The translations under genes were made by a program, and so were the position numbers. DNA of 64,000 nt from Amoebophrya sp. A120 (taxonomy: Eukaryota; Protista; Dinoflagellata): contig CAJINV010000005.1 of the NCBI GenBank assembly GCA_905178155.1, forward strand, positions 984,564-1,048,563. The letters are read 5' to 3'. The notes under the pieces were generated by a model. It saw only the letters and a list, made by a program, of their open reading frames with translations. It did no database searches and was not told where the DNA came from. Of the stretch, positions 1 through 29,454 are shown one piece after another. The stretch's first letter is position 1. Each line of letters begins with the position of its first letter.

Positions 1-3000
1 TTCTTCGACAAGGGGCACTTCCTGTGTCCCGCGCACCTGCTGTGGCACGAGTTGGTCGAGGACTTGAACTACGGCAACACGCGCGGCCTACTCCAAATGC
101 TGCTGGACGACATGAAGCGCGGGAAGGTGCAGGACCTGACCAGTGCGAGGAAGCTGAAGAACAAGCTGGATCAACATGGGAATGCACCCGGTGGACGAGG
201 TGGACAACCGCGGAGGAATGTATTTTCGCCGAGGAACAACGACTACCTAACATCCGCTGCTGGCGTTACTGGATATAATGATCTTGACCCACAGCAACAA
301 GCAGACAAATCTTCCTTCACCTTCCAAATGAACAATGCCGTTGCCTCCTCCGTGTCCCCGCGCGTTGCCGGCAACCAGCCCTTCCTGGCCGCGGAAGTGT
401 CGGGGCAGTTGTTCGCGGCTTCCGAGGTGTCGCACAAGAACCTCGCGGACTACGTGAAGCAGGATCGCAGAAGAACACGGGAGCTCAGCGGGGACTTGAA
501 GGGCATGTACAACCACCACCGCGAGGGCCAGCACTTCGCGGAGGATTTGAAGGCGATTGGCGTCGACGCGGAGACCGTCGAGCAGCTGGCGAGCGAGGGC
601 TTGTTGCCGGAGAAGGAGGAAGAGGGAGATTTGGTCACGGGGTCGTCCCCGGCCGCTTCTCCCTCGTCGCCCACCGCGGCGGACGATGACCGCAGGTTAG
701 CGAGGCTACTGGCGTCGCCGACGGGTGACACCGCTCCGGCACAGCTGCCGCGCGCCGTCACCCGGCCCATTCACGAAGTGGCTCCGCAGGTTGCGGAGGT
801 TTCCGGCGTCGTGTTGCCGCCACCGCAGCAGGCCGAATTGTCCGGGGTGATTTCCGATCCTCCCCCGCGTGTCGCCGAGCTATCCATGGTGAGTCCGCCA
901 CCGGCAAAACGAACAAAGCCTGTCGGCGCCGCTGCTTTCAAGCGCAAGATGGCCTCGTTCGCTTCCGGCGAGCAGAGCCCAACGTCGCGAGGAAAAGTTC
1001 GCGAAGTATCCGGCGACGGAGTAGATGACATGATGGACCGTTGCCAGCAGCAGCGACGAGAGCCAGATGTTACTAACCCGTTGCCGAACCAGCCAGTCAC
1101 AATACCGACCGCACCCAAGCCGCCGGCGTTCAACAGTTGGCAGCAAAACGAACCCGAGGTGAACGAGATTTCAATGAAGAAGCTGCCAACTATCATGGAA
1201 GAAAGGGACAGGCAAGCGGTTCCGGCGGCAGCCGAACCTGCGCGCGTCGAGGCGCTGAGCTTCGGCCCTACAGTTGCGCAACCCGCGCATCAAGTGGAGG
1301 CGCTGAGTTTTGGCCCGCTCGGGCCCCCGAAGGTGGAGGCGCTGAGTTTCGGCCCAACCACCCTTCCTCCAAAGGTGGAGGCGCTGAGTTACGGTCCGAT
1401 TCCGAAGGCACACGGTGCCTTCCCCTCCGGACTCGCCTCCCCCATGGACATGAGCAACCAGGTGCAGGCCCTGAGCTTCGCTGCCCAACCCGCCTCGCCC
1501 TACGCTGCCGCGGACAGTCTACCAAACGCGGCGGCGCGCACGCCAGTTTATTCCCCAACCGCGTACAAAGTTGGAGATCTTTACGGCAACAATTTCAACA
1601 AGCCCCCGCCCCTAGACCTCTACGATGAGGAGGTGAAGCACCGGCTTTATTTGGAGAGGGAAGCGCTAGAGGAGCGGGTTCGAACCATCCTCACCGGCAT
1701 CATAGAGGCTTGCGCGCAGACGAACTCCGTTTTTCTCCTAGGTCGTCCCTCCGGCGGGAACCGGTTGTCCGAGATTCTGTGCGAGAAGCTGCGCCCCGGG
1801 TGCAACGCGCTGGGGTGTTACACCCTGGACGAGTGCACCACGATCCCCTCCATCGTGTCCCCCAACGTACAGTACAAGTGGCCTACGCAGCGCGAGATCG
1901 AGAACAGCATGTGGAAACACAACTTCCAGGACCCGGCGCGGACGAGGATACCGCAAAAGGTGTTCGAAACGGCTTGCGTGGACGAACGGGAGGAGGTTTA
2001 TGCCGTCGAAAAAACGTACTACCCACTTTTCATATTCATGCAGCAAGTACCAGGCGCGGCTCTCGCCCACAAGGGGCTTTTTGTAGTTTTCTGATAAATT
2101 CACTAAGCAGGATCAGATAGTGGATTGGCGATGTAGCAGCACCAGCTAAGCGCACTAGCTAAGCGCACTAGCTAAGCGCACTAGCTAAGCGCACTAGCTA
2201 AGCGCACTAGCTAAGCGTACTAGCTAAGCGTACGAGCTACGCGCACGAGCTACGCGCACGAGCTACGCGCACTAGCTAAGCGCACTAGCTACGCGCACTA
2301 GCTAAGCGCACTAGCTAAGCGCACTAGCTAAGCGCACTAGCTAAGCGCACTAACTAAGCGCACTAGCTAAGCGCACTAACTGAGCGCACTAGCTCAGCGC
2401 ACTAGCAATCTATGTGTGACTTGTATAGCGAGAGTCACATGATCGTGGCCACGTGGTAAGAACGTTTTTTCGCAGGATGACGTAACCGAAGTAATCAACA
2501 TCCAGTCCGGATTGACGGAGTATGAGAGTACTTGTGTCAAGGACGGCAAAACCATGCTGACGTACGGCGGGTGCATGAAAAACGTGACGCATGTCTTGGT
2601 CTTCGCGACGGACCAGGTATATGATGTTGCTGAGTAGAACATGCACAAGGACAAACAAGGTGATTTTTCACGATCGCGTTATCCCTTTGTAGAATATTGT
2701 CTGAAGTAGAGAAAATAAAGTTGAAATTATCAATCAGGCCCGCAAGAAATTCTGCGAGCTTTTTCTCGAACTTTTCTCGGTCGGCTTGATCGTGGCGGGC
2801 GGAACCGGTCCGATCGCCAAACTCGGGCTGCGCTGCCTCCGCACGGGTTCTCCGCTTATCCTATGTAAAAACATCCCCACCCCAGAGTCAAGATGGGGAT
2901 TTTGCAACACAAACCTTGAAGTTTTGGAAACCACGCATGACAAATTGCAGGCTGTAGTGTAGTGCAGTTTAGCAAGGGAAGCCGCATAACAAATCGATCT

Positions 3001-5822
3001 CCTTATGCTGTTTACAGCATTACAAGTTCCAAAACGCGATTGATAATGCCCCTCATGGGATCGCGCATTACAAACGCTCTCGTGCTTGCAGATCTGCATG
3101 ACAACTCTGTGGTGGGGACGTTTTTACACGGGATACCGCTGTTCATTTTGGAAGGCACGGGCGGTCCGGCCGACGGGTTCGCGGAGCTCATGCGGATTTA
3201 CGAAATGTTCTTTTCCCCGGACGCACTGTACCCCCGCGCGAGTCTGAAGTGGATCCACGAGGAGATCGAGAACCGGTTGACCAAGCGGAACCCTCGGTAC
3301 CACTTCACCTACCACCACTTTTGGACCTTCGCGCGGAACTTCGACGAATCCTTCCGCCACAATTCCGTCATGGTGGTGAATTTATCCTTAGATAACCCGC
3401 AGATGAAGATGCTCCCCGTCGAGCGGCTCCAGGACGAGATCACGCAGGTGATGTCGTCCGTGCACGAAAACTTGGGGGAGATCGGCAATCAAGAATCCGA
3501 GACGCGGGCGATCCAGCACGCGGCCGATTTGTTTGGCGTATTGCTCGACGCGGCGCGAAATTTCCGGTTCGCGGCGACCATTCTGATGACCGTGATCCGC
3601 GTGTTGATTCTCGTCTCCACCACTCTAGCCTTGGCGCAAGTGTGGCTGGAAGCGGCGGAGGACCACCACCCGTTCTTCATGCACAGCAGCGATCCGGGGC
3701 AGGACCGCGCCTGGGCTATTCTCTGGACCCGACGGTTAAACGTGGTACTTCCCTTACTGATCTCCGTCCTCGTCACCTTCAGCGCGAGCTACCGGCCGCT
3801 GCAACGGTTCGTCACCGTTTTCGCCGCGGCGAAACGGATCGAGGGGGAGATTTGGCGGTACCGGGCGCGCGTCGGGGAGTACGTGCCCGTATCGGTGACG
3901 GCGATGAGTTTGAGGAAGAGGAAATCCGCGCGGGAAAACTTCGCGTCCACCGTGGAGGAGATCTGGACCAGCTGCGGGTCCGCGGATTTACGCCTCGGAC
4001 ACTTCTCCCGGTTTTTACCGGATATCTTTTCCTCGGATCGGAACGTGCGCTCCTCCGCGCGGGACGTGCAGGGGCTGCAGTCCTGGAGCAACAATCGGTG
4101 GAGCCGGTCGAGGTCCTGTTTTACCGACGACGGAGATGACCCGCATAACTCCTTCGTCGATCCGCAACGAAACACGAGAAGAAGCTTCGGCCGGTCAAAT
4201 AGCTGGGGAATGAACAAGTTGGGAAAACTTGCCGGAGGCAAGGGCGCGCAATATCAAGACCGGTACGGATACTCTGGTAAAAATCTCGACCCACACGATG
4301 ATTATGGTGGAAGTAGGCGTGAAGCGTTTTACTTCGGAGATGACCAGCACAGCGACCATTCCGGCGACTCGCCTTACCACCACGGCAAAAACCAGGAAGT
4401 AAACAAGCGCAGTAAGTTTTACGGAAAAATGATGACGAACACACGACGCCGGGGCTCCACCGCCGATTTTTTGCTCGATGACAACAAGAAACCTGCCACC
4501 GGCCGGAGTATCAGTTTGAAATTTTTGGAGATGGATAAAGACGATGAAAATAGGTTGAACGCGCCAGTGGTGACGCGGAAGCGGGAATTTTTATCGTACA
4601 AGGCCTGGACGGAGAAGAACCGGGGCCGGGACAAACTTTTGACCGGTGGGGACAAAAACAGTCTCACCTGCTTATCAAGGTGAAAAATGCCCCTACCCCC
4701 GAACGTGGGAGCATTTGTATTGCAAACCTTTCCAAATGAAACATACGCCCTCTTGCATCTTCAGCACCACAGATTTCCAATCGTGAATAGCAAAACTTTG
4801 TATTGCAAAAGACCCCAGCAAAAGTGGCGCTTGTCATGCAAGCGATGCGATACACGCGTAGACTCTGCACCAGAAAGATTCATACTTCTTTCATGCATGA
4901 CAAAAAGTTTGCATCTGGGAACTTCGCATCACAAGTTTTTACGACTTTGGGGGTGGTGGCATTTTTCACTGTAATACTGCTCCGCCGAAGTGTACGTCCG
5001 CGACCGGGTTTTGCCGCAGTTACGGGAGAACGAGCGCATGACGCCGAAGCTGGCGATATGGAATGCAAATATGTCTGGGTCATCTGGAAGAATGCACGTT
5101 TGTCATGCATGTCTGGCATGACTCTTACATCTGTGATGCATGAGCAGGAAAAGGGCCTCGTGCCTGTCATGCAAAAGCGCAGTTTATCATGCGGAAAACG
5201 CAACACTGAGCAGCGCAGACCTTTCTCATGCAAAGCTGTGCATTACAGAGCATTCACGATTCCCAACCAAGTATTACAAGTTTCCAGACCCAGACATATT
5301 TGCAATGCATAGGCGAGACAGCTGTACCAGTTGCAGTTCGCGATCATTGTTTTGAACGCGAGTAACGCCGCGTTGGTGGCATTCGGGGCGGCGGTCTGGG
5401 TGCCGTTGTTACTCGCTCTCGCGTCTTTACTGGAGTACTCGGTAACGTACCAGGCGTTGGAAATGCGGCTGCCGCACATGAACGCCGCGACGAACACGTT
5501 GGTGAAGTTACTTCTCTGGTGGGACGGGCTGACGCGCATCCAGCAGCGGATGCCGGAGAGCAAGGAATTTTTGGTCGATTCGGCGGAAAAAGCGATTTTG
5601 TTACAGCACGACGCGTTCGTCACCGGCGCGCTAGCGTCGCTCCGAGACGCGATCGGGAAGAAGCAGAATCAGAGCAACGACGCAACCGGGGCGGAATTGG
5701 AGGGAAATGGGAATGGGCAGTGGAGAGGAAATTCCTGTGTGCAAGTCGGGAATAGCGGAGGGTTCAAAGGAGGGACGGGTGGGGAGTCGCTAAATCGGAG
5801 CCAGCGGGCGCATAGCATGTAG
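1..5822 (+). CDS. 5'-partial multi-exon gene: low-complexity N-terminus + SLOG/LSDAT (TRPM N-terminal-like) domain + two SLATT-like 2TM domains
   Basis: Frame is open from base 1. GT-AG introns at 2047-2475 and 2617-2737; introners at 2857-3135, 4673-4976 and 5057-5311. The spliced product contains ILTGIIEACAQTNSVFLLG, NVTHVLVF and LIVAGGTGP..RTGSPLFILEGTGGPAD (LSDAT-like), then LPLLISVLVTFSASYRPLQRF..AAKRIEGEIWRYRARVGEY and EVYVRDRVLPQL..LYQLQFAIIV..LLLWWDGLT..LVDSAEKAIL (SLATT-like). Stop at 5820-5822. Confidence 0.75.
2144..2405. repeat. 13-bp tandem repeat (GCTAAGCGCACTA), about 20 copies, intronic
   Basis: Directly visible head-to-tail copies with minor variants (GCTACGCGCACGA), inside intron 2047-2475. 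Confidence 0.95.
2857..3135. mobile_element. Introner, TIR family B (279 bp), TSD CCGCT
   Basis: TATCCTATGTAAAAACATCCCCACC...GGTGGGGACGTTTTTACACGGGATA. CCGCT at 2852-2856 and 3136-3140. Removal gives ..RTGSPLFILEG.. Confidence 0.93.
4673..4976. mobile_element. Introner, TIR family C (304 bp), TSD CTGCT
   Basis: TATCAAGGTGAAAAATGCCCCTACCCCC...GGGGGTGGTGGCATTTTTCACTGTAATA. CTGCT at 4668-4672 and 4977-4981. Removal gives ..SLTCSAEVYVRDR.. Confidence 0.92.
5057..5311. mobile_element. Introner, TIR family A (255 bp), TSD GGCGA
   Basis: TATGGAATGCAAATATGTCTGGGTC...GACCCAGACATATTTGCAATGCATA. GGCGA at 5052-5056 and 5312-5316. Removal gives ..MTPKLARQLYQLQF.. Confidence 0.93.
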
Positions 5823-6311
5823 AATGCATCTTCGAAGTAGATGCGTCTTTTTATTAAAAATATAATTTTTGCGGTCGTTCAATTTCTTGTTGTAAGGTTC
5901 TTGTTTCGAATTTTGTATCTCCATCACGAATGCTGCACTCGCTCCTACGCTTTGTACAATCATAGCTTTTATTGTCATGTCATTACATTGACATTCCGAT
6001 CTTGCATCGACACTAGCAGGAGAATTGGGAAATGGTCACGAACGTGCGCCAAAGCGTCACGCAGCCGGTTGCGCTGTAATGCTTGTGTATATAGGACCGC
6101 ATACTTTTTTCCATTTGATGTCGTGGCGTTCACCTCCGTTGTCTTCGCCTTCGTGTCTGAGCGCCAGAGCTGGTTTGCTTGGATAGAGTATAGTGATGGA
6201 GTGAAGTAAAGAGTGCCTTTGGCTGCAAAGAAAAGCGAGTGCACGAAAGGCTGCTGCTGTCAATGCACTGTCTAGTAGAAGTCTGGCTGTTCAGAAGTTA
6301 AGGAAAAAACG

Positions 6312-9300
6312 ATGACCACCGAAGAGGGGCTCGGCGGCGCAACGCCGTCGGCTTTTCCAGAACCGCTAAGCGTCGTCGACGTGGTTGCCACTGAAGATGT
6401 CACAATTACGGAAGATAGGCCAATCGAAGGCGAGCTTACCCAGGCCGCCGTGTCCGACACCGAGAAGCCGGCAAGTGAAAACCCGGCCAGCGAAATGCCC
6501 ACCGATGCAGCCGGGGCTCTGGGTTTTTGCAAGGAGAACCAGGCCCAGTTTTTGTCTGGTATCACCGTCGCATTGGCCATGATCCCTGAGGCCGTGGCGT
6601 TTTCCTTCGTCGCGAAGGTGGAACCGCCAGTGGCTCTCACGGCAGCCTGGATCATGTGCTTTTTCACCGCCGTAGCGGGCGGCAGGCCAGGTAAAAAAAA
6701 CATTTTGCCACCCGGTCGAGTTCCACGACCAGTGCTCATAAGATAGTTAGGTGCAACATGGGCACCGGGCAAGTTGCAACTCTCGAACCCACTATCACAA
6801 CAAAAAACCAGGTATGATTTCCGGTGCCACCGGTTCCATGGCGGTGATCATGACGTCCATAGTCACTGACGAAGGGGTGGAGTACCTTTTCTGGTATCCT
6901 GTGTAAAAACGTCCCCACCCCAGAGTTGTCATGTAGATTTGCAATTGCAGGAACATTTGTAATGCGCGTCCCCAAGGGAGGCATTTCCAATCGTGTTTTG
7001 GCATTTGTAATGCTGCAAACAGGATAAGCAGATGGATTTGTGATGTGGCTGTCCTTGCTAACATGCACTACACTACGGACTGCAACTTGTCATGCGTGGG
7101 TCCCAAAGCTTCTGGGTTTGTAATGCTACGCTCCCAACTTGACTATGGGGTGGGGACGTTTTTGCATATGATATCTGGGCCGTGATGTTTTGCGGTTTGT
7201 TTCAAATCCTGCTCGGGTTCGCGGGCATCCACAAAGCACTCTCCCTGGTCACCTTCCCTGTCAAGATCGGGTTTCTCAACGGGCTCGCACTGGTGATCGG
7301 GAAGGCGCAGCTGGAATCCTTTTTGATCCCGCACGGGGAGACCACCGAGAAAACCGAGCATTTGGAGATCGTGGACTTCGTGTTGGCGACCAGCAACTAC
7401 GTGAAAGCAGACAAACTGATCGTCATGCTGGTACTAATAGTATAGCAACAGCTAGCTATAGGTTTTTTTCTGGAGAAATTCCGTCATAGCAAGTTTGATG
7501 GTTTCAGCATTCTTGCAATGGTTTCGGCGACAGCAAAACTCTTTTTGTCCTCTTCCTGTGCATTTTTTGCATCTGCTCTTCAAAGAGGATTCATTTTCCT
7601 GTTCCAAGCGAAAGAAGTATCAAACCCGCGGCCTAAAAAATAAGGTCCTTTCCTTCATCGCCCTGGGCATCAACTTTCTTCCCGAAAAGTTTCAAAAATA
7701 CCCCCTCGCGCTTATCTCCATCGTTTTCGTCACCGTCCTGGAGCACGCCTGCGTCCGCACGTTCATTCTGCCGGATGAGGGAACTACGCTCGTGGAGGAC
7801 ATGGCGAATCTGAAAGGGAACTTCCTCGAGGTGGTGTTTAGCAAGTACGACATGCCGAATCCCTTCAACGACGGGGGTGCACTCGCGTCGACGATTCTCA
7901 CCGCGGTTTATTTGTGCGTGATCGGGCTCACCGAGTCCCTGATGACGTTGGAGAAGATCGACGAGATGCTGCCCGACTCCCCGCCCGGAGATGCGAGACG
8001 GGAGGTTTTGGCGCAGGGCGGCGGCAATTTGATCTGTGGGTTCTTCGGGTCCATGGGCGGTTGCGCCATGATCGGGCAGGCCATGATCAACGTGCGGAAT
8101 GGCGGCACGAAGAGGATAGCCGGTATGACGGCCGGTGTGGGCACGCTTCTGATTATGGTGGCCATCAGTCCGGTTATAGGAAAAATTCCGGTTGGCAGTT
8201 TGGTCGGAGTGATGTGGTATAATTTTTTCCAGCTACGAAGATCATCAAGATCACACATCAAGAATTACTATCGCTTCGCATCTAAAATGTCCGAAAACGA
8301 GTACAATTGCACCTCCTACTCATAACAGGTGCGTGTCGTATCACACCTGGGAGAAAAAGACCCACATCCTGTTCTACGAGGCCTTTACGGGCAAGCCCTG
8401 GAAGCCGATTGAAGTATACGTCGTCAGCGAGGAGGCCGTGACCCCCGCGGTGGAGTCTCCCGCAACGACCGAAGGCGGAAATAGAAATCAGCTGCTGCCG
8501 CCGGGCGGCGATAATGTGGTGCGGGTGATCTCCGTCAGCAAGGAGGCACTGGCGCAAGCCGACGTAGGCCGATCGGGCTCCAAGGACCCACCCCCAGCGG
8601 ACGACTCGTTTGGGCAACCGCCCAGGTCCCAGCCCAGTAAGGAAACGGTCGGCAGCAAAGGATCGGAAATATCATCATGTACAGATAGATATTTTTTTGG
8701 GTACCGATTTTTTTTTGTTGTACTACAAATACAAACAGAATTATGAGGAGTATAGCAGGTATGCTGGTTCTTGTTTGTTCTTCGATTGCGACAGCGGCGC
8801 ACGTGAACAAAATCGAATGCACAATGAATTCTACTACCAAAATGCAAAAATAGACTCCGCCGGCGGCACGCGCGTGGTCCGCAAGCGGTCCAAGGGACAC
8901 TACCACCACGGCGTCGCGGGCGAGCAGAGTCCCGCGGCTAAGCGCGAAGACATCGTTTCGCATTTGGACAACGTGGTCGTCACCCCGGCGGCGCTGCGGG
9001 ACCGATCGCGGCTGTCCAAGGAAGAAGCGGAGGACGTTATCGAAAGGAAAAAGCCCCCCTCCCCGTATCAAACCGGAACTTCTGGCGCTGGATTTGCGTA
9101 CACAGATCAGCTTTGTCTTGCTGGAGAGGACTGCTGGCCCATATCAAGCCTTTGTAGGGAGATTTTGGCCTAGGCGCTTAGAATGAGAAACGTCTGCGCT
9201 GTAGGCTCACCAGCATCACAAACCCCCTGCGTAAATGCGGCGGCGCCTGTGGAGTTGCCTTCTTGCAAGACAGAGATGGTTTGTGGTCGACAATCAGCAT

Positions 9301-10158
9301 TGCAAATCTTCTGCGGCGTGCCTTTTCGATATTGGGAGGGGGAGTTTTTCCTTTTGATAGACGTGCAGCTCGGTTTGGCGGAGCTTTCCCGCTTCGACTG
9401 CTTCATCGTGGTAGTGGTCACCATCGGGTATGAATTGCAAAAATGTCTGGGTCTGGAAGATTCTGACAGTTGTCACGCACGTTTTGCATGAGCCATGATG
9501 TCTGTGATGCATATACTAGCAATACAGATTGTTTGAGGGCTTCTTGATGCCTATTCCGCATCACAAATGCCTTCTCATCGTAGCAAAAATTGCATTCCCT
9601 TCGCTACTCATGCAATACAGATTTTTTTGGAATCCAAAGGCAGCATCACAAGTTGCAATCTTCCAGACCCAGACATATTTGCAATGCATATCGGGACGCT
9701 GATTACCAATCTCGCCATCGCGGTCGCGGCGGGAATCGTGATGTCGAAGCTCATATCCTAAGTAAAAACGTCCCCACCTCAGAGTTGTCACGCAAACTCT
9801 GCTGGCTGAAAATATTTCTCATTGCGGAGCTCCTCGAGAAGCATTTTCTAGTCGTGTTTCGTAGTTTGTCATGCTTTAAAAATCAGCATTATATGCTAGA
9901 TCTGTGATGCTGCTGAACTACCTGAGCAGCATTACACTACGAGGCCAAACTTGTCATGTGCAACAGCCAAAGCTGGTTGATTTGTCTAGCAGATATCTCA
10001 TCTTGATTCTGGTGTGGGGACGCCTTTACTCAGGATAGCTCAACAGCTTGTACCTGCAAAAGTACGGCGACGACAAGCCCGCCCCGGCGGACGCGAGTAC
10101 GAAGCCAGCGGTGGGCACACCCGTGGCGCAGGACCCGGAATCGCTGGCGCCGAATTGA
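6312..10158 (+). CDS. SulP/SLC26 family anion (sulfate/bicarbonate) transporter, multi-exon
   Basis: [90 protein letters not shown] and [10 protein letters not shown] are SulP motifs. Four GT-AG introns and four introners. Stop TGA at 10156-10158. Confidence 0.9.
6895..7173. mobile_element. Introner, family B (279 bp), TSD TCTGG, opposite orientation to 2857-3135
   Basis: TATCCTGTGTAAAAACGTCCCCACCCCA...TGGGGTGGGGACGTTTTTGCATATGATA. Removal gives ..EYLFWAVMFCG.. Confidence 0.93.
9038..9359. mobile_element. Introner, family D (322 bp), TSD GACGT
   Basis: TATCGAAAGGAAAAAGCCCCCCTCCCC...GGGAGGGGGAGTTTTTCCTTTTGATA. Removal gives ..[13 protein letters not shown].. Confidence 0.92.
9429..9690. mobile_element. 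Introner, family A (262 bp), TSD TCGGG
   Basis: TATGAATTGCAAAAATGTCTGGGTCTGGAAGA...TCTTCCAGACCCAGACATATTTGCAATGCATA. Removal gives ..[13 protein letters not shown].. Confidence 0.94.
9754..10037. mobile_element. Introner, family B (284 bp), TSD GCTCA
   Basis: TATCCTAAGTAAAAACGTCCCCAC...GTGGGGACGCCTTTACTCAGGATA. Removal gives ..[12 protein letters not shown].. Confidence 0.92.
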
Positions 10159-11275
10159 GGAGATTTATTTGTTTCCGGAAATTAAGTTTCGCATGATCCA
10201 TCATCCAGATGTGCTAATATGCAAAATAAGGCCACCAGTCGTGGACAGTTATCCGTCGAGAGAGAGAGAGAGAGGAGCTCCTAATGTACTACTCCCTTAC
10301 TTGTTTTACAAGATATACTCGCAAGCAGGCGGTAAATGTAAAGTTACTGTAAAATAAATTCGATATTGAATTGATCTAATTATCAATCGGTGACTTTCAT
10401 CGCCGACCGCTGCTTTAGAACCCTATACAGAAGTATTTTGGAACTTTTCTCTTTCACAGTTCCTTGTCCTTACCTGGGAACTTTTGCAAAATTGTATGAT
10501 GGATTCGTTTCCTGAGGTGAGGAAAATGTTATCTACTTCCGGTCAACTACAAAATGCAGGATGATGTGCTACTCGTTGGTATTAGAAGCTCTGGTTGTGT
10601 GTGCCGTGCCCTAGACAGCGGCCGAAGCATCATTGTGCTGGTGCATGTACTTTCTTTTCTTGCGCGCCTCGTATGCACACCGCGTGCGGTAGTTTTAACG
10701 TCACGTGCTGTCTACTTGCAGTGGAAAAAATAGGTCAGCGGTGCAGGAGAGAGTGTTGAAATTCAAGTTCACAAAAATCTGCTTGTCGTTATATTTCTTT
10801 GTACGTAGAAGTTCTAGTTTCGTATTCGTTCGGTGCGGTCAGTTCGTGCAGTAAAACAACCACTCGTTCTTCACACAGAAGCTGCAAATAGAATCTTTCG
10901 TCCTGTCGTGCACCTATTTTTTCGTCGCGTCGTGCAGGAATGGAAATGGTGGCCATAAGTAACGGCGATAATATCATGCTTTGGTCCGTGACCGGTCACA
11001 GCTTTGCCGTACTTAGCGCATGCTTTGTTTTCTGAAGTTCAGCTGCGATTATACCCTGCCACGTGAACGATGCCATTTCAATTGCTTTTTCTCCGTGTCA
11101 TGAGCTCAGCTTAACGACGGATTAATTTGATTCCCACCCCGCGAAGGTATGTACATTTGTGAAGATGTCTCTTTTACGACAGCGCAAAAGCAATATATGA
11201 TTCTGTTTTTTTCCTAAACTAAAACAAGCCATTCAGCCTGCCACGACTTCAGCGTCAGCCTTGATTTATCGTAGT

Positions 11276-14200
11276 ATGTGTGCTTCATCTTTTCGACTTT
11301 ACTGCGCTTTGGTAACAGCATTTCACCGTCTCGCTCTGTTCCCGAGGAGCATCAGCGGTAGTTCTTTGAGATTACGAAAAAATGCCGGCCATCCGTCCGA
11401 GCAGAAGAAACCTATACCCAGGTCGTTGTCCTTTTTGTCCTCGAATAAACGCACGTCAAATCGCAACCGACCGCACCAGGACAAACCTCGGGGGCGGGCC
11501 CTACTAGAGCATAAGGAAAATATTAAGGGGCCGCTCGACGATGTGGCTAGGTTTTTTGGATTGCACGGAGGAGAAGACGAAAACTTCAAGCGCAAGCCTT
11601 GGAAGGTGTCCCAAATCGCCTGGGGAGAGCCCGGTGACGCGACGTGTCCCCCCGGGTCGGATATGCATTGCAAATATGTCTGGGTCTGGAATGTTGCCGG
11701 GTTTGTTATGCATGTTTTGCATGACCCAGGATGTCTGTAGTGCACGATCTAGCATCACAGATTTTTAGAGGGCTTCCTGATGCCTACTTCGCATGACAAA
11801 TGCCTTCCCCGCGTAGCACAAACTAGACTCCTCTTGCTGGTCTTGCAATACAGATTTTTTCAGAGTCCAATGTTAGCATCACAAGTTCCAACCTTCCAGA
11901 CCCAGACACTTTTGCATTTGATATCGGAACCGCTGGACGAGCGGTCGTGCGGGGATGCAGTGTACCTGATGCTCGACCACCTTATCAAAGTGAAAAATCC
12001 CCCCTCCCCAATTGAAACGAAGTTTGTGATGCTGGACTTCCGTACACAAATCAGATTTGTCTTGCTGGAGAGGACTGCGGGCCCATATCAAACCTGAGTA
12101 GGGAGATTTTGGTCTACACATTTAGCATGAGAAGCGTCCGTGCTGTAGGCTCAGCAGCATCACAAACCGCCTGCATAGCGCGGCGGAACCTGTGGGGCTG
12201 CCTGCTTGCGAGACAGAGATGATGATGATGATGTTACCCAGTAAAGGGTTTAGGGTGTTGAAGAACTAAAATATTCCTCAGCGTCGTGCTGCTCCTCAGG
12301 ACGTTCTCCTTCGTCGCAACGTCTGCGGCCACGTTTCTTCAACTTGCGCCGTGCCTGGTGCGATCTCATCGCCCCCACAATCCATCCCAGTTTGCGCAGC
12401 GGCTGTCCTTCGTCGGGGGTGTGAAATGTGGCGTCGTCGTGTTGAAGCTCGTACTTGTACACCTTGCAGTGCGGGCGCCGGATATGCTGCGCCCCCGCTC
12501 GGTCCGTGTAGAGGGATTCACGGGGCAGATGGTAAGCCCACGCCGAGGCACCGCCTCCGTAGGTGTACTTCGCTTCCGTCCTGTTCCAGCCATGATTTGT
12601 GGTCGCAAATCAGCATCACATGCCTTTTCGATATGGGGAGGGGGAATTTTTCCTCGTGATACACCTGCAGCTTTCGCACCAACGCTGGCCGGTGATCTCC
12701 TCCCGGGACTTCGTGGGACGTGGCCCCGATTCTGCGGGGTATTGGCGCGGGGAGTTGGGGTGGGAAAACCGCTGCGCTGGGGATGGAGAAAGGCGTTGCG
12801 GGGTGCATAACAAGAACTTGCCGTTCTACGGCGAGAAGCTGTGGGGCTTCCATAATTTGCCTGTGGGCTGCAGCGTACAGAGCACGGGGCGGGACCCGGA
12901 GGTGGACGTGCCGGGGACGCACGTGTGCGGCCCGTTAGATCACCAGTGGAGAATATCCCACAGAATAAAGAGACAGGCAGGCCATAAGTATTTGTGATGC
13001 AAAAAAGGAAAAAATGAAAGTATCATCTCTCTGGCGTGTCAGAAGCAGCATAGGGACGACGCCCATGACAGATCTTTCTGTTTAAAGTAATTTGTTTCTG
13101 CACGGTAAACATCAAGTATGCCAGGCCTGCTCTATTTCTGCGGGATAGAGGATGCCGCATTATCGCGACCCGAGTTACCGGGTGCCGCCGGACTGGTACC
13201 AGGTACCGGAAGAGGAGATGCACCTTGATAGTGAAATGCTCCTTCAATTTCAAGGTGTGAGAAGAGAAAGCGACGCTTGCCGCGAATGGCGCAGTGCCTA
13301 TATCCCGGTTTGCCGCCGATTGGAGGACATAAACGACAGTGTTTCAGAGGACGAGATTGCGGATCTTCCAGCTTCCTGGACCACGCCTCCAGTCGCGCCG
13401 CAGACGATAGACGAACTAGCTTGGGGCGAGCCGGGGGACGCCGACTGCCCGCAAGGGTCACACCCCCTGGAAGAGTCGTCTTGCGCGGTGGCCGTTGCGC
13501 TGCTACGCGAATACCATGATTGGACAACGAATATTCCCGGGCGCGTGCCGGCAGGATATACCGCGACCCCGAGGTTCCACACGACTAGCGATCTGACGTG
13601 GCCGGAACTCAGTAAAGAGGCTAGCATTAACAACCAACAGGACGGTCGGTACAATTTTAACGGCACTTCGTGTTCGAACGTCACCGCCGGTTTTAACGCT
13701 TTTATCCTACCTCACCTCGGAATCGAGTTTGCGCTTAGCGATAGCGAAATTGCGCGGGTGATAAACAGCGCCTGCCCGGTAAACGTGAACGTGCCGTTCA
13801 ATCCCGGCAGCACTCTAATTGTGTCACTCCCGGAAAGCCTCAGTAAGCTGCCGAATCCACACGAGCTGTATGACATGTATCGGGCTCGGCATAAAAACTG
13901 GACAAATGCTGAACCGTGGATGAAGTTAGCGGATGCCACAACTGGGTGGCAGAAGCAATGGGATTGGTATAATGTTCCCCTGGGTTGCAGCATCCAGTCC
14001 TCGGGCCGGGAGGTGGAACAGCAGACGCCGGACTCGCACCCCTGCGGAGCTAGCTTCACCCCGAATCGCGAGGCGCACTGGCGAGACGGCGAGGTTCCCT
14101 CGGACTGGCACGAGCCAAACGGTGCCTGTCGCGCGTGGCGCAGCATCTACATGCCGGTTTGCCGCCGCGACCGGCCGGACTCGTGGACGCCACCGGAAAA

Positions 14201-18410: not shown

Positions 18411-20663
18411 ACGTCTGCGGCCTATAGCGTCTTCCGAATCGCACTTCCGTCCGAGGAAAGTCTCTTCGCCAAGGCAACGGAGAAATTCGCCGCCAACGGC
18501 CTTGCCACGGACAAGGAGCCCACGACGGACGTGACCATCACTCGGCATCTCGTGTCCGTCAAAGACATCATCGCCCATGCAGACTACGTGCGGGCGCAGG
18601 ACCAGCCGCGGGGCGGGAACGTTTTGTCCACCCGGGATTTGCTGTCGCTCTCCCTAACGCCGGCGAAGGTGTGGGAGAAGGAGTTTTCCGCGCGGGAGAT
18701 GGGACCCGATTTGGCCATCGACCGCGGCTTCGAAGCGGGGGAAGCGGAAACCGCGAAACCGGTGCTGCAACTCGGACGGGGACTGCCGTTCGAGGATAAT
18801 AATTCCGCATCAGAAGCAGACGAAGGGAGTAGTACAGCTGGACACGGCAAGGACAATCCTCCGACACCGCCGGATGAAGACGATGACACAACAACCAGCA
18901 TTCCGGAAACCACGCAATCGTTGGAGCAGAAGGCGCACCGCTTCGCGCAGCAACGCCGCTTGCAGCCAAAGCTTCTACCTCGGCAGCACTGTTTGGTGAT
19001 GGTGTTCGGACAGTACCGAGCGGTGATTTGGCGGTCCGAAGCGTTGCTCTTCGGCGCCGAGCAGCCGGAGATGCGGCAGCTCGCGCTGGATCTGAAAGCT
19101 TCTGTAGAATCCAGGTATCGATACCGCGCGCCGCAAAACGAGCTGGCGGTTTTTTCTGGTAGCGGTGGCTCATCGGACCCTTCTGGAGGAGGCGCTTTAT
19201 TCGGTGGTGCAAACGGAAATGGCAATCATCAATCCGCGGAGGGCGGGCGAAGTTCGACGTTTCGGGCCGAGCGGGTGGAGAGAGATTTCGAAGTCGTCGT
19301 GGTGCAGCACCTGCTGGATCACGTGTGCAACGCCTGGGAGAGGCGTTTGCTGTTCTACCGACCGATTCTGTCCCAGATCAGCAAGTCGCTGGCCGGGATC
19401 GTCCACAGCGAGGACGGGGACGACTTGCTGTTCCGAGTGTCGAATCTCCTTCCCCTCCGCGATTCCCTCGGTTCCTTCACGATGCAACTGCAGGACGCGA
19501 TTGGGGCGCTGGAGACGACCGTCTCGAGCGACGAGGCCATGCTTTCGATGTTGCTCACCGAGAAGTCCTTACTCGGGGCGGAACGACGGCAGCTGCACGT
19601 GCAGCGCATGAAAAGCGCCCAGTATGGGTGGAAGGAGGGGGAAGGCCGGTTCGCGGACGACGCGGCGACGGGTGCGGAAATAAATGCTGCTCCGACGACG
19701 ACCGTCACGCGGACGAAGAGCAAATCGAATGTCCTAGGCGACGAAGTGCTGGCGAGCAAGGGCGTGGGCGGGAGCAAGAAGACAACGGCGAATTATAAGG
19801 CGGGTTCATCTTCTAAATCAGCGACATCAGGTCCGCCTCTGTCTTCGGCCGCAACCCCCGCCGTCGACCCTGACAATTTAAACACGATCCAGAGGAACAT
19901 GGCGTTGGCCGTTGCAAGAAAGGTTTCTACCGTAGAAGACGATCTCGCGATGATTGACGCGCGGTACCACACGACGATTGAAATTATGCTGGAGGAGTTC
20001 GCCCGGCAGCTGAACGGAGTGTTGTCCGAGGTCTTGTACATGCAAAAGCGGCTGGACGCGAAGCAGGAACTGGTCACGGTGTCCATGAGCAGTTCCCGAA
20101 ATCAAATTTTGCGGTTAAATCTCTACTTGTCCATCGCAGGGTTGGCTTGCATGGTCCCAACAACGATCGCCGGGTTTTTCGGGATGAATTTGGACAACGG
20201 GATCGATTTCCACCTGGTCCCGTACATTTTCGAAATTGTCACTGTCTCGAGCTCAGGAATTGGGTTACTTGCAGCGCTCTACTGTTTTCGGTATTTGAAG
20301 CGGTCCCACCAGGGGCGCAACAACCAGGACCGGATACGGCAGTTGAAATCCTACGGCAGACTCTTGGAGGACTTGGACGCCTTGGACCGGGCTTTTCTAC
20401 ACGGCATTCTACCAAGATTAGATGCCGGTATGGCGGCGCAAAGTTCTATGCAGTCAAAGCTATCGGGGGCACCGCCTGTTACGTCGAATCAGCAATTATC
20501 CGTCGCGGATTTCCGAGAAATCTTTCAGCAGGCCAGGCCGGATATACCGGTGTCAGAGGAAGAGGCACAGCTGGTGTTTGACATGTTCGACGTCGATCGG
20601 TCGGGCGCACTGGAGTCGGGGGAGCTGGAGAGCTTAAGGCCAAACAAGCGCGGAAGGGGTTGA
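18411..20663 (+). CDS. Mrs2/CorA-family Mg2+ transporter with a C-terminal EF-hand (5' end in or before the gap)
   Basis: RDLL..L, LLPRQHCLVMVFGQYRAVI, DFEVVVVQHLL, SSRNQILRLNLYL..AGFFGMNL (GMN signature), a second TM, and EF-hand loop DVDRSGALESGE. Confidence 0.9.
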   Translation, partial: TSAAYSVFRIALPSEESLFAKATEKFAANGLATDKEPTTDVTITRHLVSVKDIIAHADYVRAQDQPRGGNVLSTRDLLSLSLTPAKVWEKEFSAREMGPDLAIDRGFEAGEAETAKPVLQLGRGLPFEDNNSASEADEGSSTAGHGKDNPPTPPDEDDDTTTSIPETTQSLEQKAHRFAQQRRLQPKLLPRQHCLVMVFGQYRAVIWRSEALLFGAEQPEMRQLALDLKASVESRYRYRAPQNELAVFSGSGGSSDPSGGGALFGGANGNGNHQSAEGGRSSTFRAERVERDFEVVVVQHLLDHVCNAWERRLLFYRPILSQISKSLAGIVHSEDGDDLLFRVSNLLPLRDSLGSFTMQLQDAIGALETTVSSDEAMLSMLLTEKSLLGAERRQLHVQRMKSAQYGWKEGEGRFADDAATGAEINAAPTTTVTRTKSKSNVLGDEVLASKGVGGSKKTTANYKAGSSSKSATSGPPLSSAATPAVDPDNLNTIQRNMALAVARKVSTVEDDLAMIDARYHTTIEIMLEEFARQLNGVLSEVLYMQKRLDAKQELVTVSMSSSRNQILRLNLYLSIAGLACMVPTTIAGFFGMNLDNGIDFHLVPYIFEIVTVSSSGIGLLAALYCFRYLKRSHQGRNNQDRIRQLKSYGRLLEDLDALDRAFLHGILPRLDAGMAAQSSMQSKLSGAPPVTSNQQLSVADFREIFQQARPDIPVSEEEAQLVFDMFDVDRSGALESGELESLRPNKRGRG

Positions 20664-22919: not shown

Positions 22920-23253
22920 AGCATGAACATACGCAGTTTATCTCACATGACAAAATTTTTCACGCGCTTCGTTGCAAGAGTCGGACCTTTCATGTGTAGG
23001 TGCGGTTCATCTAAGTGGCGCGAAATTGATTCAGTCCGTTACTCAGCGGGTTTTCCTTACACACTGGTGGAGGACTCGTTCTCTAGTGGACAAACAAACA
23101 AACTATTCTTTCGCAACGCTCTTCAGCATGATTTTTGGCATTTGCTGGCATCGCGAATTCGCGTCTCGTGCAAAGCGGCTTCCCTTGCTGCGGCGGTTGC
23201 TTGTGGCAGCCGTCGTGTAGTGGAGCCGTTCTAAACTGGCGCTACAGTAAAAA

Positions 23254-23749
23254 CTTTCAATACTCAACGGTCATTACTTTCCCTTGTGTGGTGACCGTTC
23301 TCTTGTGGAAGGACAGATCCTGTGCTGAAAAAGAGAACTGATCTTAATCAGGACACGCAAAAATGTCCGCGTCCTGTGCAAAGCGACGTCCCTTGCCGTT
23401 TTTCCAGCTCCAAGTCGAAAAGAATTTTCCTGTAGGGAAGTGTCGCCTAAACGGGCGCCAAAGGAACAGCTTTCAATACTCAACGGTCAGTGCTTTTTCT
23501 TGTGCGGTGACCGTTCTCTTGTGGAAGGACAGATCCTGTGCTGAAAAAGAAGCGATCTCAATCAGGACACGCAGAAGTGTCCGCGTCCTGTGCAAAGCGA
23601 CGTCCCTTGTCGTTTCTCCAGCTCCAAGCCGAAAAGAATTTTCCTGTAGGGACGTGTCGCCCAAACGGGCGCCAAAGAAAAAGCTTTCAATACTCAACGG
23701 TTAGTGCTTTTTCTTGTGCGCTGATCGTTCTCTTGTGGAAGGACAGATC
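23254..23749. repeat. About 215-bp tandem duplication, about 2.3 copies
   Basis: CTTTCAATACTCAACGG..TCTCTTGTGGAAGGACAGATC recurs at 23254, 23470 and 23684. Confidence 0.9.
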
Positions 23750-23846
23750 TTCGATACTACGCTTTGGGATGGCATGCCACGGTAGAAATTCGCTCCAAAT
23801 GAGAAGTTGTCGGCGTGCGCATCCTGTCCGGTGATTTTCGCGTGCG

Positions 23847-24447
23847 AGCCACAAAAGCCACCGCGACTCCGAGACCTTTGCGCTTCGAATTGGTGGCGCT
23901 CAGATCCATAAGTCGTAGACAAATTCTTGTTTGTACTGGTTTCCGCACGGCAATAGCATCTTGTCCGGCGGCGCTTGCGTGAGTCTTGGTCTCACCTTTG
24001 ACGCCTTTTTTCTTCCCTTTTGTCTCCCTCTTTTCCAATCGGAACTCTCGCGCATGGCAATAGATTGCGCTCCCGTATATGAGCAGTGAGAAAACGTTTT
24101 TCGTGTTTTCCTCACTTTCGCTGAGGAGCTACAGCAGCCACCGCAACTCCGAGACCTTTGCGCTTCGGATTGGTGGCGCTCAGATCCATAAGTTGTAGAC
24201 AATTTTACGCTCTAATATTCCAACTTTGTCGTGCGCTGCTGGCATTGTTGCCTTGCCTCTTCTCTTGCCTGATTCCCTTCCACTCCTTCCCGCGCTTCGT
24301 AAAAACATTTCGCTCCCGTATATGAGCAGTGAGAAGACGTTTTTCGTGTCTTCCTCACTTTCGCTGAGGAGCCACAAAAACCACCGCAACTCCGAGACCT
24401 TTGCGCTTCGGATTGGTGGCGCTCAGATCCATAAGTTGTAGACAAAT
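23847..24447. repeat. Imperfect tandem repeat, three copies of an about 80-bp core at 240-280 bp spacing
   Basis: CCACCGC(G/A)ACTCCGAGACCTTTGCGCTTCG(A/G)ATTGGTGGCGCTCAGATCCATAAGT(C/T)GTAGACAA at about 23858, 24137 and 24381. Confidence 0.88.
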
Positions 24448-25059: not shown

Positions 25060-27561
25060 TTTCAGCTTGCTAAATGAAATTTATCCGCCGGAGTCAGTAT
25101 CTCTCGCGTGGTGTGAATTTTCAGTCGCCATTCGAGTCATCAAGTCTCCCAAAAGAAACTAGCAGCTACTTTGTGCGATGCTCTCTATCGCTGCTTCTGG
25201 TATTTTCTGTGAAGCAGTGGGGAGTGTCCAGTACGCTACAGTGACACGTCAATGATTCAAGGATCACATGATAAGTCGTTTCTTTTCTTCGTGTGGGTCT
25301 GTGTTTGGTTGCTCAGGTCAAATTGTTGTGTAGTGACATAATCCGCAAAAACATCCAAAAACAGCCCCTGCTACGACATCACCACTGCTAGCCCAAACTG
25401 GAGCGTGTCCACCGATCGTGCCGCCACAAGCGGTATGGGAGAAGCTACGAGCGAGACAATTCTTCCGGTACCTCGGCAGGCTCGCGGAACCAGGTGGGTC
25501 TTTTGTTCGTGTTGTTTGTCGTGTGTAAGTACTTCTCTTCTAGTTGCTTGTATGACTCGATCGCCCCGTTGGAAGTTCCTAGTGCTACGACTACATGTTT
25601 GATGCAGTCCAGCAGATGAAGATCTAATAGGATTCTTTCAAAACTCCGGCACCACAAGTAGAGTACGCTAACCTTTCTGGTGCCAGCAAGAGTCCATCAG
25701 CGTGGTTTGGCTGTTTGGGTAAACCCTCAGCCTTTCCAAAAATTCCATACGCTGCGCTGGACATCGCTCTACAATACTCTACGGTGCCCAAAAGAAACCT
25801 TACGCTCGTCCGTAGTGCGATCCTCCTAGACAGCTTCGAGTTTTTCGATTTTGTCGCCCGGATCATTGGCAGATAACCTTCGGTGGTTCGAGTTTTTCGA
25901 GCTGCTTTTTTCTGCCTTCAGTCGCTACTTGGGTGTAAATCTGCGCGGTCCTTAAGTCACCCGTCCCAAGAGCAGTCGGGGATTTTTGTCTTGACAAAAT
26001 CCTTGCTCTTCCGCCGGTTAGACGCCGTCGGCCTAATGGATGTGGTTTCGAGTCATAACCACGCTACAATGTTCCTTGAATATCGCCTACTAGTTTTCCA
26101 TATGGCAGAAATAGCGAGATCAAATTCGCAAGCGTGACGCTATGACAATGGATCTTCTGAGACAAAAATGCAGAGGGTCAGACTAAGTACCCGCACTCCA
26201 AAATTCCGGTTTCGACGCTCGATCTCTGCAGCGTGCTTGACGAAGCTCGGTGGCGGTTCTTCCCGAAGAATTGCCCCTTGCGAGTAGACTTGTCACAATG
26301 CGTTTTCGAAACTACTCGTCTCTCCGGGACCAACTGTGTGGAAGAAGAAACAGAGTGTTTTAGTAAATCCGTTTTGGTTTTGCGTTTTGTGAGACCAATC
26401 TGGATTCCGATTTTGTCGGCACTCAATCTGCGCGGCCCTTAAGTCACCCACCTTGAAGACGAGGAATTTCTTTCCTCGTCTTCCTGCCGGTTAGACGCCG
26501 TCGGTCTAGTAGGTGCGGTCTCGAGTCATAACCACGCAACAATTTGTATTTGTGCTGTCTCATGCAAGAAGATCGCAGTGACTACTGATCAGGAATCTGA
26601 TGCGAGCAGATCAAAATTTGCTTTGTTATGCCAGAAACCAAAATCTCAGATCCTGAAACCATGGAACTGGAAGACCGACTTACGAATCTGCGGTTCCAAG
26701 CCGGGCAGGCTCTACCGGACGACGCTCTAATACGGAACTGGGAAATCGCGGAGAAGGCAAAACTGCAAGCAGAATTACAGGCGTGTCGGGACGATCCAAA
26801 TTTTATCGCCATGGCAGAGGACGACTCGGCGGAAGAACCCGGCAGTGCCTTTGTGTGAAGGGCGAGGAGGCCTTTTATTTTCGTGGATGCAAGCTACCTG
26901 CTCGTCGGGTGCAGCGTGCTCTCGTGCAGCTAGTCGCGGCGGTGGTGATGCATGGGGTCGGTTACGCGACCGGCATCTTTTCGTTTTGATAGAGGACAGT
27001 GGAGGCGAAAGGGGGCGGTCATGGTCCCAGCATTTAGGGAATTTGGTAGCGAAAACATGAACATTGATTTGAAAGATTTACTATTTGTTTCGAAGAACGA
27101 GAACCACAACCACCGCAGGAAAGATGAAAATTCCCATTCCAAATCCGAAAATCGCCGAGCTTCTGCTGCAAGGAAAACTTTTCACACGAGCAACGTGCTT
27201 CATCTTCCCAACAATGATTGAATCGCTGCACATGATTTTTCCAAACGCGCATCAGTGTTCGCGGCGTCACGACTGCTCAGGTTCTGTTGCGTTTCGTCTT
27301 CTGCGTGCTTCGTAAGTGGTTCTTGTTGGTGGTTTGCTCAAAAAAGATCCGTAGTGTACTTTGCCTAAGAACGATTGTTCCAAGATAGAACAATAGATCA
27401 ATCACAATCAATACCCTTGAGAGAACACAAGAGAGGGGCAACAAGAACTGACTTTTGGAGCGGTACATCCAGCAGTTCTGACCGAGAGGACAACAGTAGG
27501 GTAGATTCTCGAGCCTTCTACAACTTCTTCAAAGATTCAGTACTCATCCAGCGTGGAACCC

Positions 27562-28750
27562 ATGGCCGCCACCGTCGGCACACTCGGCAGTGACGTGGTC
27601 GGCGTCATCTCGCCCGGGACCGAGGTGCAGATCGAGGGGTTGCAAAACGCGGCGCACTTGAACTATCAAATGCAAAAATGTCTGGGTCTGGAAACTTGTG
27701 ATGCCGCATGGCAACTCAAGAGAACGCCAGAAATGACGGCTTAGCATGACAGGTTTTTGATTCGCTAGGTGTTGCCTATTCTGCATGAGAAACTGGGTTT
27801 TTGCCTCCCACAAAAGCGGCGCTTTTGGGTACCTTGCATGACAGTCATGCTAGCAGAGCATGACTTTCCAGACCCAGATATATTTGCAATGCATATGAGC
27901 GGGTTGAAGGCGATTGTGGTGGAATACGACCAGGACAATAACCGGTACAAAGTCCTATGAACTGCAAAAGTATCGTACTCGTATAAATGCATTACAAATT
28001 TTCTCAGCATGGGAAATCAAATTTGTCATGCTGATTTACCTTAAGAAAAATATTTGTAATGCAAGACTTGCAGTTATACGAGTGCGATACTTTTGCACAG
28101 GATAAGTCCACGTCGAGGACGATTCGAACATTGCTCTGCGCGCGCAGAACTTCCGAATCCTGTCCGTTGCCGCGGCCCCGGACGTGGTCATTGGCCAAGC
28201 GAGTTCTCCGAACCCAGGAGTGCGGCTGAGTCAGCAATCTGGGAGTCCTGCGAATGCGTCATCGTTGTCGATCAATGTGCCGCCGCCCACAACGGTAAAC
28301 CAGCAGTCGACGGTGACCTCCATCTTGTCCCGGCGGGACAGCTATCAACTGCAAACATGTCTGGGTCTGGAAGATCGCCACGCTTGTCATGCATATTCGG
28401 CATGACCAAGGATGTCTGTAATGCATGCCCTAGCTGCATCAGAAATTTTTACAGGGCTTCCTAATGCCTATTCCGCGTGACAAATGCCATCCCCGCGTAG
28501 CACAAACTGGACTCCTCTTGCTGGTCATGCGATGCAAATGTTTTTAGAATCCAAAGCTAGCATCACAAGTCCGAACTTTCCAGACCCAGGCATATTTGTA
28601 ATGCATAACAGCGAGGACGCGCTGTTTCACAAGCTTGGCTGGACCGATTACGTGTTGTGTGGCGAGTTTCCTTTGTTCACGAAGTCGCTGGTGATTGGGG
28701 GGCTGTGGATGTTTTTGGTAACCATGCTTCTCATCTACGCGCCGCGGTAG
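27562..28750 (+). CDS. Small protein with a VxIxGL..LNG..RYxV (SH3/KOW-like beta-barrel) module and a C-terminal TM
   Basis: After removing three introners: PGTEVQIEGLQNAAHLNGLKAIVVEYDQDNNRYKVHVEDDSNIALRAQNFRIL...SLVIGGLWMFLVTMLLIYAPR*. Confidence 0.8.
27664..27895. mobile_element. Introner, family A (232 bp), TSD TGAAC/TGAGC
   Basis: TATCAAATGCAAAAATGTCTGGGTCTGGAAA...TTTCCAGACCCAGATATATTTGCAATGCATA. Removal gives HLNGLKA. Confidence 0.92.
27956..28104. mobile_element. Introner, family E (149 bp), TSD AGTCC
   Basis: TATGAACTGCAAAAGTATCGTACTCGTATAA...TTATACGAGTGCGATACTTTTGCACAGGATA. Removal gives RYKVHVEDD. Confidence 0.92.
28343..28607. mobile_element. Introner, family A (265 bp), TSD ACAGC
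   Basis: TATCAACTGCAAACATGTCTGGGTCTGGAA...TTCCAGACCCAGGCATATTTGTAATGCATA. Removal gives RRDSEDALF. Confidence 0.93.
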
Positions 28751-29454
28751 AGCCAGAGAAGAACAGGAGGTTGTTGTTGAGACGGTGGCGCCTCGTCGTG
28801 TAGGTACATTTCACATACAAGACTCCTCGCACCCTGCAGTGAACGAAGAGTCCATCCAAGTCGCGATGAGCAGCTCCGATGCCGCGAGGTCATAGCAGAA
28901 GATTTATCGTTGCCTTAGATGGTTGTGAGTGAGCAAGATGAAGTCGAGTTTGTCTTTCGGTGCCGAGGCCGCGCGTGGCTCCCTCTTGCTGCTCGCGCGT
29001 TTTGATCGGCTATCGTGCAAGTGTCTGCGAAACTCTTGACAATCCCTAGAAGATCTTCCCGATACTACATTCATAAGTCAAAGATCCGATTGGAACTAAA
29101 TGCAGATCCAGACAAAGCAGTTTCATAGGATAATTTGAGATCATGATCAGAAGCACAGATGAAAGGCGGATCCGTTAATGTTAAGGGTACAAGATCACGG
29201 CAGAAGCAGATCCACAAAGTTTGTTCAGAACGAATCCACCAAGGTGTGCTCCTCAAATCAAAGAGAAATCGTGGAGATTGTCATTGTCTTGCCATCAAAT
29301 GATCAATTCTTCCATCTCTTGTTCAGGTGTACGAAGCTAGACTTTGCCGCAGGTAAAGATAAAACGTATGGTCGTGTGTAGGTCCTCTGGCGCGTGAAGT
29401 CAGATTGGTCTCTCGTTCTAGTGAGCGGTTTCTTTCACGTGAAAAGAAAACAGA

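Follow-up and report, generated by a model that had tools for sequence, protein, structure and literature searches.

The elements described here are introners of the known Amoebophrya A120 type, and what appears to be new is a conserved code of 12-bp sites inside them, set in same-direction pairs and phased with the DNA helix. They lie in a stretch of 64,000 nucleotides, hereafter called the window, and in related metagenomic loci. Our leading explanation, to which we give about an even chance, is that one shared protein binds these paired sites on double-stranded DNA and aids the assembly of the transposition complex across families.

The element at 6895–7173 interrupts a gene whose conceptual protein, taken from the host transcript, matches PF00916 (E 2.9e-14). 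Removing the element leaves 552 codons of open frame; if it is kept, a stop is reached at codon 157. The X4 and X5 contigs skip 284 nucleotides at this place, i.e. the 279 of the element plus 5, which corresponds to precise removal from the sulfate permease transcript. The element is bounded by terminal inverted repeats (TIRs) of 30 bp and by a target-site duplication (TSD), and its features are the following.

6275–10593, plus strand: host transcript of the sulfate permease family, containing the focal element and three others (9038, 9429, 9754)
6895–7173, plus strand: focal family B introner of 279 bp with TAT...ATA ends and without a coding frame; TIR match 26/30
6890–6894, plus strand: left 5-bp TSD, TCTGG
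7174–7178, plus strand: right 5-bp TSD, TCTGG
6895–6924, plus strand: left TIR, with TAT tip fixed, positions 4–10 loose and positions 11–30 conserved
7144–7173, minus strand: right TIR
6924–6935, plus strand: motif site 1, pair 1, at +33 relative to the end; weak in the focal copy (score 7.4)
6955–6966, plus strand: motif site 2, pair 1, +31
7003–7014, plus strand: motif site 3, pair 2
7036–7047, plus strand: motif site 4, pair 2, +33
7085–7096, plus strand: motif site 5, pair 3
7116–7127, plus strand: motif site 6, pair 3, +31

Sixteen elements, 4,742 bp in total, were recovered from the window by looking for TAT...ATA pairs with inverted ends; their TIRs are about 30 bp long. When TSD lengths of 2–11 were tested, a 5-bp TSD was perfect in 14 of the 16 and had one mismatch in the other two. 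The remaining elements are listed below, with the strand where one was assigned.

2857–3135, minus strand: family B copy in reverse orientation; its six sites all lie antisense to the host RNA, and it is spliced out nonetheless
4673–4976: family C introner with motif sites
5057–5311: family A introner
9038–9359: family D introner
9429–9690: family A introner
9754–10037, plus strand: family B copy
11662–11923: family A introner
11983–12661: family D introner carrying an internal insertion
27664–27895: family A introner, TSD mismatched; contig joint 27662 to 27900
27956–28104: family E introner
28343–28607: family A introner
29864–30034: family F introner, near-palindromic, with a pair at +33/+64 from either end
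37171–37423: family A introner
37482–37761, plus strand: family B copy
50969–51434: family A introner carrying an internal insertion

Contig joints of element length plus 5 were found at no fewer than 7 of the 9 elements in 2500–13300 and at least 3 of the 6 in 27500–41950 (at least 10 of 15 over both stretches), the contig runs being taken as RNA by guess; the same contigs are without the GT-AG introns (plus strand). The raw RNA reads X10 and X11 matched the window only in part and yielded nothing; near 12220–12253, about 500 partly fitting X10 reads continue into unrelated sequence. In one case, at 27659–27900, the two TSD copies differ by a mismatch, from which the splice register can be read: the 5' cut falls at the fifth TSD base or at TAT, and the intron closes with ATA plus 4 or 5 TSD bases. 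In this single case, the N-TAT start may mimic the GTAT donor that is common in ordinary introns of the host. Introners enlarged by internal insertion or nesting were seen at 11983–12661 and 50969–51434 of the window and in three metagenomic loci (L018, 505–1608; L070, 6017–6988; L062, 4769–5799).

For the wider sample, a metagenome was scanned with the family A TIR, yielding 147 overlapping loci (544 kb) whose contigs, among the matches listed, bear one shared assembly prefix. The strongest matches between these loci and the window are the elements, not their flanks. Once overlaps, duplicates and calls longer than 400 bp had been taken out of 332 raw calls, 320 elements were left (14 from the window and 306 from the metagenome assembly), forming 27 groups, 17 of which have at least two copies. 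It should be noted that all counts rest on the window and on loci selected by the TIR of one family, so that the sample is biased toward family A and its neighbours.

The TIRs are bipartite. Their TAT tip, which was itself a search requirement, is invariant; positions 4–10 are loose (547 end-to-end mismatches in 1,708 positions), and positions 11–30 are conserved (626 in 4,880), with A at positions 11–13 in 293, 308 and 315 of the 332 raw calls. By eye, positions 11–30 fall into about nine unlike types, and in families 9 and 10 the TIR contains 15-bp subrepeats. After masking of the motifs, the interiors were similar in 11 of 136 family pairs. No coding element was found among the longer TIR-bounded stretches of the window and the 544 kb of loci (12 rows, 9 of them distinct), nor did six frames from two of these stretches match Pfam. 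The Rfam search returned 0 matches, as did the family A TIR in viral contigs; the paired-motif pattern had 90 scattered matches in viral contigs, none with TIR plus TSD, and these were provisionally taken as chance matches.

In the available parts of PMC7789003, A120 introners are described as having inverted repeats of TAT, seven loose bases and at least three A, 5-bp direct repeats (Fig. S19 legend), TIRs of about 30 bp and non-canonical splicing, and as being grouped into families by inverted repeat and overall similarity; a transposase was not found in A120. The elements of the window resemble them in their TAT + 7 + AAA ends, 5-bp repeats, TIRs of about 30 bp, non-GT-AG splicing and lack of an internal transposase, and their family lengths (about 149, 209, 260, 279, 305 and 320 bp) match file 8 of PMC12130899 among the rows listed. 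What these two sources cover, as far as available, is ends, repeats and hairpins, with no internal motif, paired spacing or helical phasing; nor is an internal motif mentioned in the accessible portions of PMC11282704 and PMC9860276. The internal code was thus not found in print, although Roy et al. 2023 (Curr Biol), which lies outside this comparison, may bear on its novelty.

The consensus of the 12-bp motif is ATTTGTCATGCA, with A-Y-Y-T-G-T-V-W-T-G-C-D as the family-weighted matrix. The first-pass annotation had noticed the shorter word TTGTVATGY in the focal copy, starting at 6926, 6957, 7005, 7038, 7087 and 7118 (spacings 31/48/33/49/31), and these positions are exact; the word itself holds, but the true site is wider. 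Its claimed recurrence in other families was correct at 9 of 11 quoted coordinates, the other two needing adjustment (9646 stands for 9643–9651 on the minus strand, and 29894 for 29895). The word has 50 matches in the window, against 3.11 expected (sd 1.96, maximum 10 in 100 shuffles), and 41 of them are inside the 16 elements; of the other 9, 6 are inside GT-AG introns. With no prior used, GTCATGC and its variants top the enrichment lists of 6-mers to 8-mers. At least one site is present in 319 of the 320 elements (mean 4.9). When the matrix was built with the target family left out, 2–7 sites were found in that family, compared with 0.03–0.16 in shuffles, and this was so in 17 of 17 families. 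At score 12, the density per kb is 15.4 in elements and 15.8 in partial copies; it drops to 0.8 in the remaining non-coding DNA and to 0.24 in coding sequence.

The earlier suggestion that the motif is kept while flanking bases drift was borne out: identity to the consensus is 0.94 in the motif core and 0.80 in the rest of the interior, a significant difference in all 12 families with five or more copies. Family by family, core conservation is about equal to that of the TIR (0.86–1.00 vs. 0.81–0.96). Position +3 varies among A, C and G but shuns T (C to T 0.024, background 0.123), which points to selection for a match rather than to a mutational cold spot. Motif and TIR are unrelated, in that TIR positions 11–30 vary by family while the motif is constant, and resemblance is confined to the tip in some A and E ends. 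Because it is shared by families with unlike TIRs and mostly unlike masked interiors, the motif is probably ancestral and, as judged from sequence comparison, would have outlived both TIRs and spacers.

Three results concern selection on inserted copies. The motif is retained (0.07; slope 0.17) in the most TIR-deviant copies (0.24, n 12), a hint that selection goes on once a copy has inserted, though one confounded by subfamily variation. An age test based on TSD mismatches was without power, as interior divergence did not rise either. Finally, the lowest change rates at the sites (0–2.4%) are about what drift since insertion is estimated to produce (465 TSD positions with 11 mismatches), and therefore no excess constraint after insertion is shown.

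With regard to geometry, same-direction pairs 30–33 bp apart number 29 of 95 (null mean 3.7, maximum 12 in 5,000) and occur in 16 of the 17 families. The general rule is a same-direction pair at 31–33 bp, the first site of which is the stronger (16.2 vs. 14.0), while the gaps between pairs vary; hence the doublet period of about 80 bp noted for the focal copy is right for family B, but not as a general rule. When each pair was counted as one site and periods 7–16 were scanned, the spacings up to 140 bp had their peak at 10.5 bp (p 0.0007), or at 10.6 bp (p 0.002) without two close families. First sites within 60 bp of the end, 23 in all, have offsets grouped at 33–34, 41–45 and 53–56, and their best period is again 10.5, reached by 0 of 5,000 nulls. 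The p-values for phasing are optimistic, since the families are not fully independent, 11 of the 136 pairs having similar interiors. A second peak lies near 14 bp (15.1 vs. 17.8), and in family B the three pairs (79 and 82 bp) do not share a phase. Sites occur in both orientations in 15 of the 17 families. There is only a hint of an inverted site inside the spacer (mean score -14.5 vs. about -28, with 3 of 29 pairs reaching score 3).

A fixed period is what tandem duplication leaves behind and some of the families do share ancestry, so the lattice might be a neutral relic of an ancestral repeat of about 31 bp, or else reflect mutational cold spots. We consider this highly improbable, and the conservation and spacer tests have largely refuted it. 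Spacers are no closer to neighbouring units (0.30) than to unrelated spacers (0.32), for which reason a tandem-repeat origin was rejected; the behaviour of position +3 is unlike that of a cold spot, and both site orientations and differing layouts are found.

The next point is whether the sites are read in DNA or in RNA. Coding potential allowed the host strand to be assigned for 244 of the 320 elements, with locus-wide and local assignments agreeing in 152 of 153; in these elements 623 sites are sense and 572 antisense, with no biased family (B 10:4, p 0.18). Sense sites were not better preserved than antisense ones, with harmful core changes at 236 of 4,788 and 242 of 4,480 positions, respectively (p 0.32), in a comparison of limited power. 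TIR mismatches showed no G-U preference (G-U 257, A-C 245). The absence of strand bias, the 10.5-bp phasing and the splicing of the copy at 2857, which has antisense sites only, favour a motif read on double-stranded DNA rather than RNA. Of the binders proposed in the first-pass annotation (a transposase, a chromatin protein or a splicing factor), the data thus favour a protein of duplex DNA over an RNA splicing factor, and no protein can be named.

The ordinary introns complicate this picture. Among the 30 GT-AG introns of the window, of which 10 are contig-supported and 20 were set by hand, 11 contain a total of 13 sense and 0 antisense sites (shuffles 0.23 and 0.43), often 26–67 nt past the 5' splice site, as in these two examples.

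41375–41496, plus strand: ordinary GT-AG intron, one sense-strand site at +32
41633–41791, plus strand: ordinary GT-AG intron, one sense-strand site at +26

The 14.7 kb of intergenic DNA showed no motif excess (2 sense and 1 antisense, compared with 1.3 and 0.9 in shuffles), and the GT-AG introns of the window no residual inverted repeat (p 0.86). In 101 predicted introns of the metagenomic loci the motif is again enriched about tenfold, but symmetrically (14:12), in a set that is impure, the predictor having recovered 5 of 10 confirmed introns. An earlier filter, which could drop introns for the motif itself, had given 20:3 sense to antisense with the window included; in the unfiltered set, 12 of 43 spacings are 31–33. 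The comparison with background and ordinary introns that the first-pass annotation had called for is therefore mixed: GT-AG introns have a fraction of the density of the elements, yet about tenfold or more that of shuffles.

Like the missing inverted repeat, the 13:0 bias in the window also speaks against the mobility reading, as neutral decay of elements should be symmetric. The bias is in addition one argument for regarding the motif as an intronic splicing enhancer that an RNA-binding protein recognises in the pre-mRNA. Since elements insert either way round, they would then need inward-pointing copies at both ends, which agrees with the two orientations found in most families, with the position of many intron sites shortly after the 5' splice site and with the fact that elements lacking a sense site are fewer (12 of 244) than those lacking an antisense site (22 of 244). 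The UGU at the start of the motif presumably resembles PUF-type sites. We nevertheless judge an RNA enhancer unlikely. The bias was not repeated in the predicted introns, impure as these are; sense-specific preservation was not seen in the elements (permutation p 0.19–0.24), though partial purging may occur; the copy at 2857 is spliced without a sense site; the period is 10.5, with a lower score at 11; and in predicted RNA structures most of the sites are paired (0.79 vs. 0.58).

Because GT-AG introns carry the motif about tenfold above shuffles and intergenic DNA does not, the main rival is a different one, namely that the motif, recognised in double-stranded DNA by a host protein, serves to mark introns, by way of chromatin or of recruitment during transcription, so that a spliceosome reported to be without U1 can take out introns that have no GT-AG ends. 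The elements would be rich in sites as only well-marked copies would be tolerated in genes. Such a mark would explain the helical spacing and strand neutrality equally well, and it is consistent with the restriction of the motif to introns, with a single site common to unlike TIRs and with its survival in copies with deviant TIRs. Moreover, TSDs show no pull toward GT or AG, so that the splicing signal must lie within the element, and U1 was not detected in A25 or A120 in the available parts of PMC7789003. On the other hand, 19 of the 30 ordinary introns are without a site, the lowest change rates at the sites match the estimated drift, and phasing to the element ends suits a complex at the ends. 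To our knowledge, intron marking at the DNA level has no precedent. On balance we hold this explanation possible but doubtful, and we are equally tentative about its corollary that unrelated transposon families became harmless introners through one host mark, with removal of tens of thousands of non-GT-AG introns. The transposition-binder and DNA intron-mark readings share the same physical picture, and both may be true at once.

If the shared transposition protein that we prefer exists, two of its units would occupy the same helical face, separated by three turns and aligned with whatever binds the TIR; by bending or bridging the short element they would bring its ends together for pairing or synapsis. 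Copies keeping their sites would go on seeding new ones, and the sites would thereby persist while spacers drift. Those found in GT-AG introns would be left over from old elements, in keeping with several predicted, motif-bearing GT-AG introns that look like decayed elements and with the spacings of 31–33 in the unfiltered intron set. Considering that the site is constant across about nine TIR types, the putative binder is more likely a host-coded or shared accessory protein than a family-specific transposase. Neither a transposase nor a binding protein was found in the window and the 544 kb of loci. The Fis sites of the Hin and Gin invertases are recombinational enhancers of this kind, i.e. 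paired sites for a host protein in duplex DNA, with fixed helical spacing and independent of orientation, but they belong to bacterial site-specific inversion, and the parallel would be one of mechanism only.

Closer among transposons is Emigrant/Lemi1, for which cooperative binding of transposase to subterminal MITE motifs has been described (PMC1636448, in its available parts, where mariner-like elements, Sleeping Beauty, pogo, CACTA and hAT are also cited for subterminal repeats). Here too, short repeated sites lie in a non-autonomous element, in both orientations, and their arrangement matters. As in subterminal transposase-binding repeats, the introner motif is conserved like the TIR, but it is not a copy of part of it: the Emigrant motif repeats half of the TIR and is confined to a single family, whereas the introner motif is unrelated to the TIR, goes with about nine TIR types and fills the whole element at a spacing of 31–33 bp. 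The 5'-TA...TA-3' termini recall IS3EU and GingerRoot (PMC10045372 and PMC6839031, as far as available), but TSDs there are usually 6 bp rather than 5 bp, and therefore the elements were not filed under these groups; in addition, GingerRoot TIRs are 100–150 bp long. A family of A120, fam38, is labelled 'Ginger, 5-bp TSD, TA/TA termini' in file 8 of PMC12130899, contrary to the available main text of that paper, according to which fam38 is without Ginger termini and TSDs.

PMC7789003, in its available parts, leaves open the mobility of Amoebophrya introners and also the way in which they are spliced when canonical ends are missing and U1 was not detected. A universal 12-bp site with fixed geometry is a concrete probe for the trans-acting protein, and it ties some 17 families with unlike terminal repeats into one system. 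It may also mark those ordinary GT-AG introns that are of introner origin. Predicted GT-AG introns in four metagenomic loci (L036, L038, L050 and L056) resemble decayed introners, and the GT-AG intron at 61013–61214 of the window starts with TAT, seven bases and an A-run and has a CAGTAT repeat at both ends; such decayed-looking introns suggest that introners have been converted into ordinary ones. Ordinary introns of the window have A-rich 3' ends without a polypyrimidine tract, often T-rich 5' halves, and mostly a GTA donor.

Some further observations were made along the way. Insertions relative to the consensus of families 0–11 peak at 3 bp (134 distinct, vs. 49 each at 2 and 4 bp), with a smaller rise at 6 bp (39), whereas deletions have no peak (16 at 3 bp). 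Most of the insertions are not exact tandem duplications; in non-coding DNA such as this, they are possibly footprints of another transposon or a repair signature. The motif may resemble Sox-Oct composite, TALE homeodomain, ApiAP2 (TGCATGCA) and PUF sites.

All genes seen in the window are on the plus strand. Pfam gave no match for 8 of the 13 window frames tested; host genes at 18414–20660, 50459–50962 and 62152–63927 encode a Mrs2/CorA-like magnesium transporter with EF-hand, an ion-channel domain and a ubiquitin-conjugating domain. A tandem array with a 13-bp unit lies at 2139–2406, past the end of the first reading frame. Degenerate tandem repeats occupy 23231–24447 and 25938–26543, with units of about 216 and 243–280 bp and a pair about 490 bp apart; they are apparently non-coding and have neither the motif nor TAT/ATA ends.
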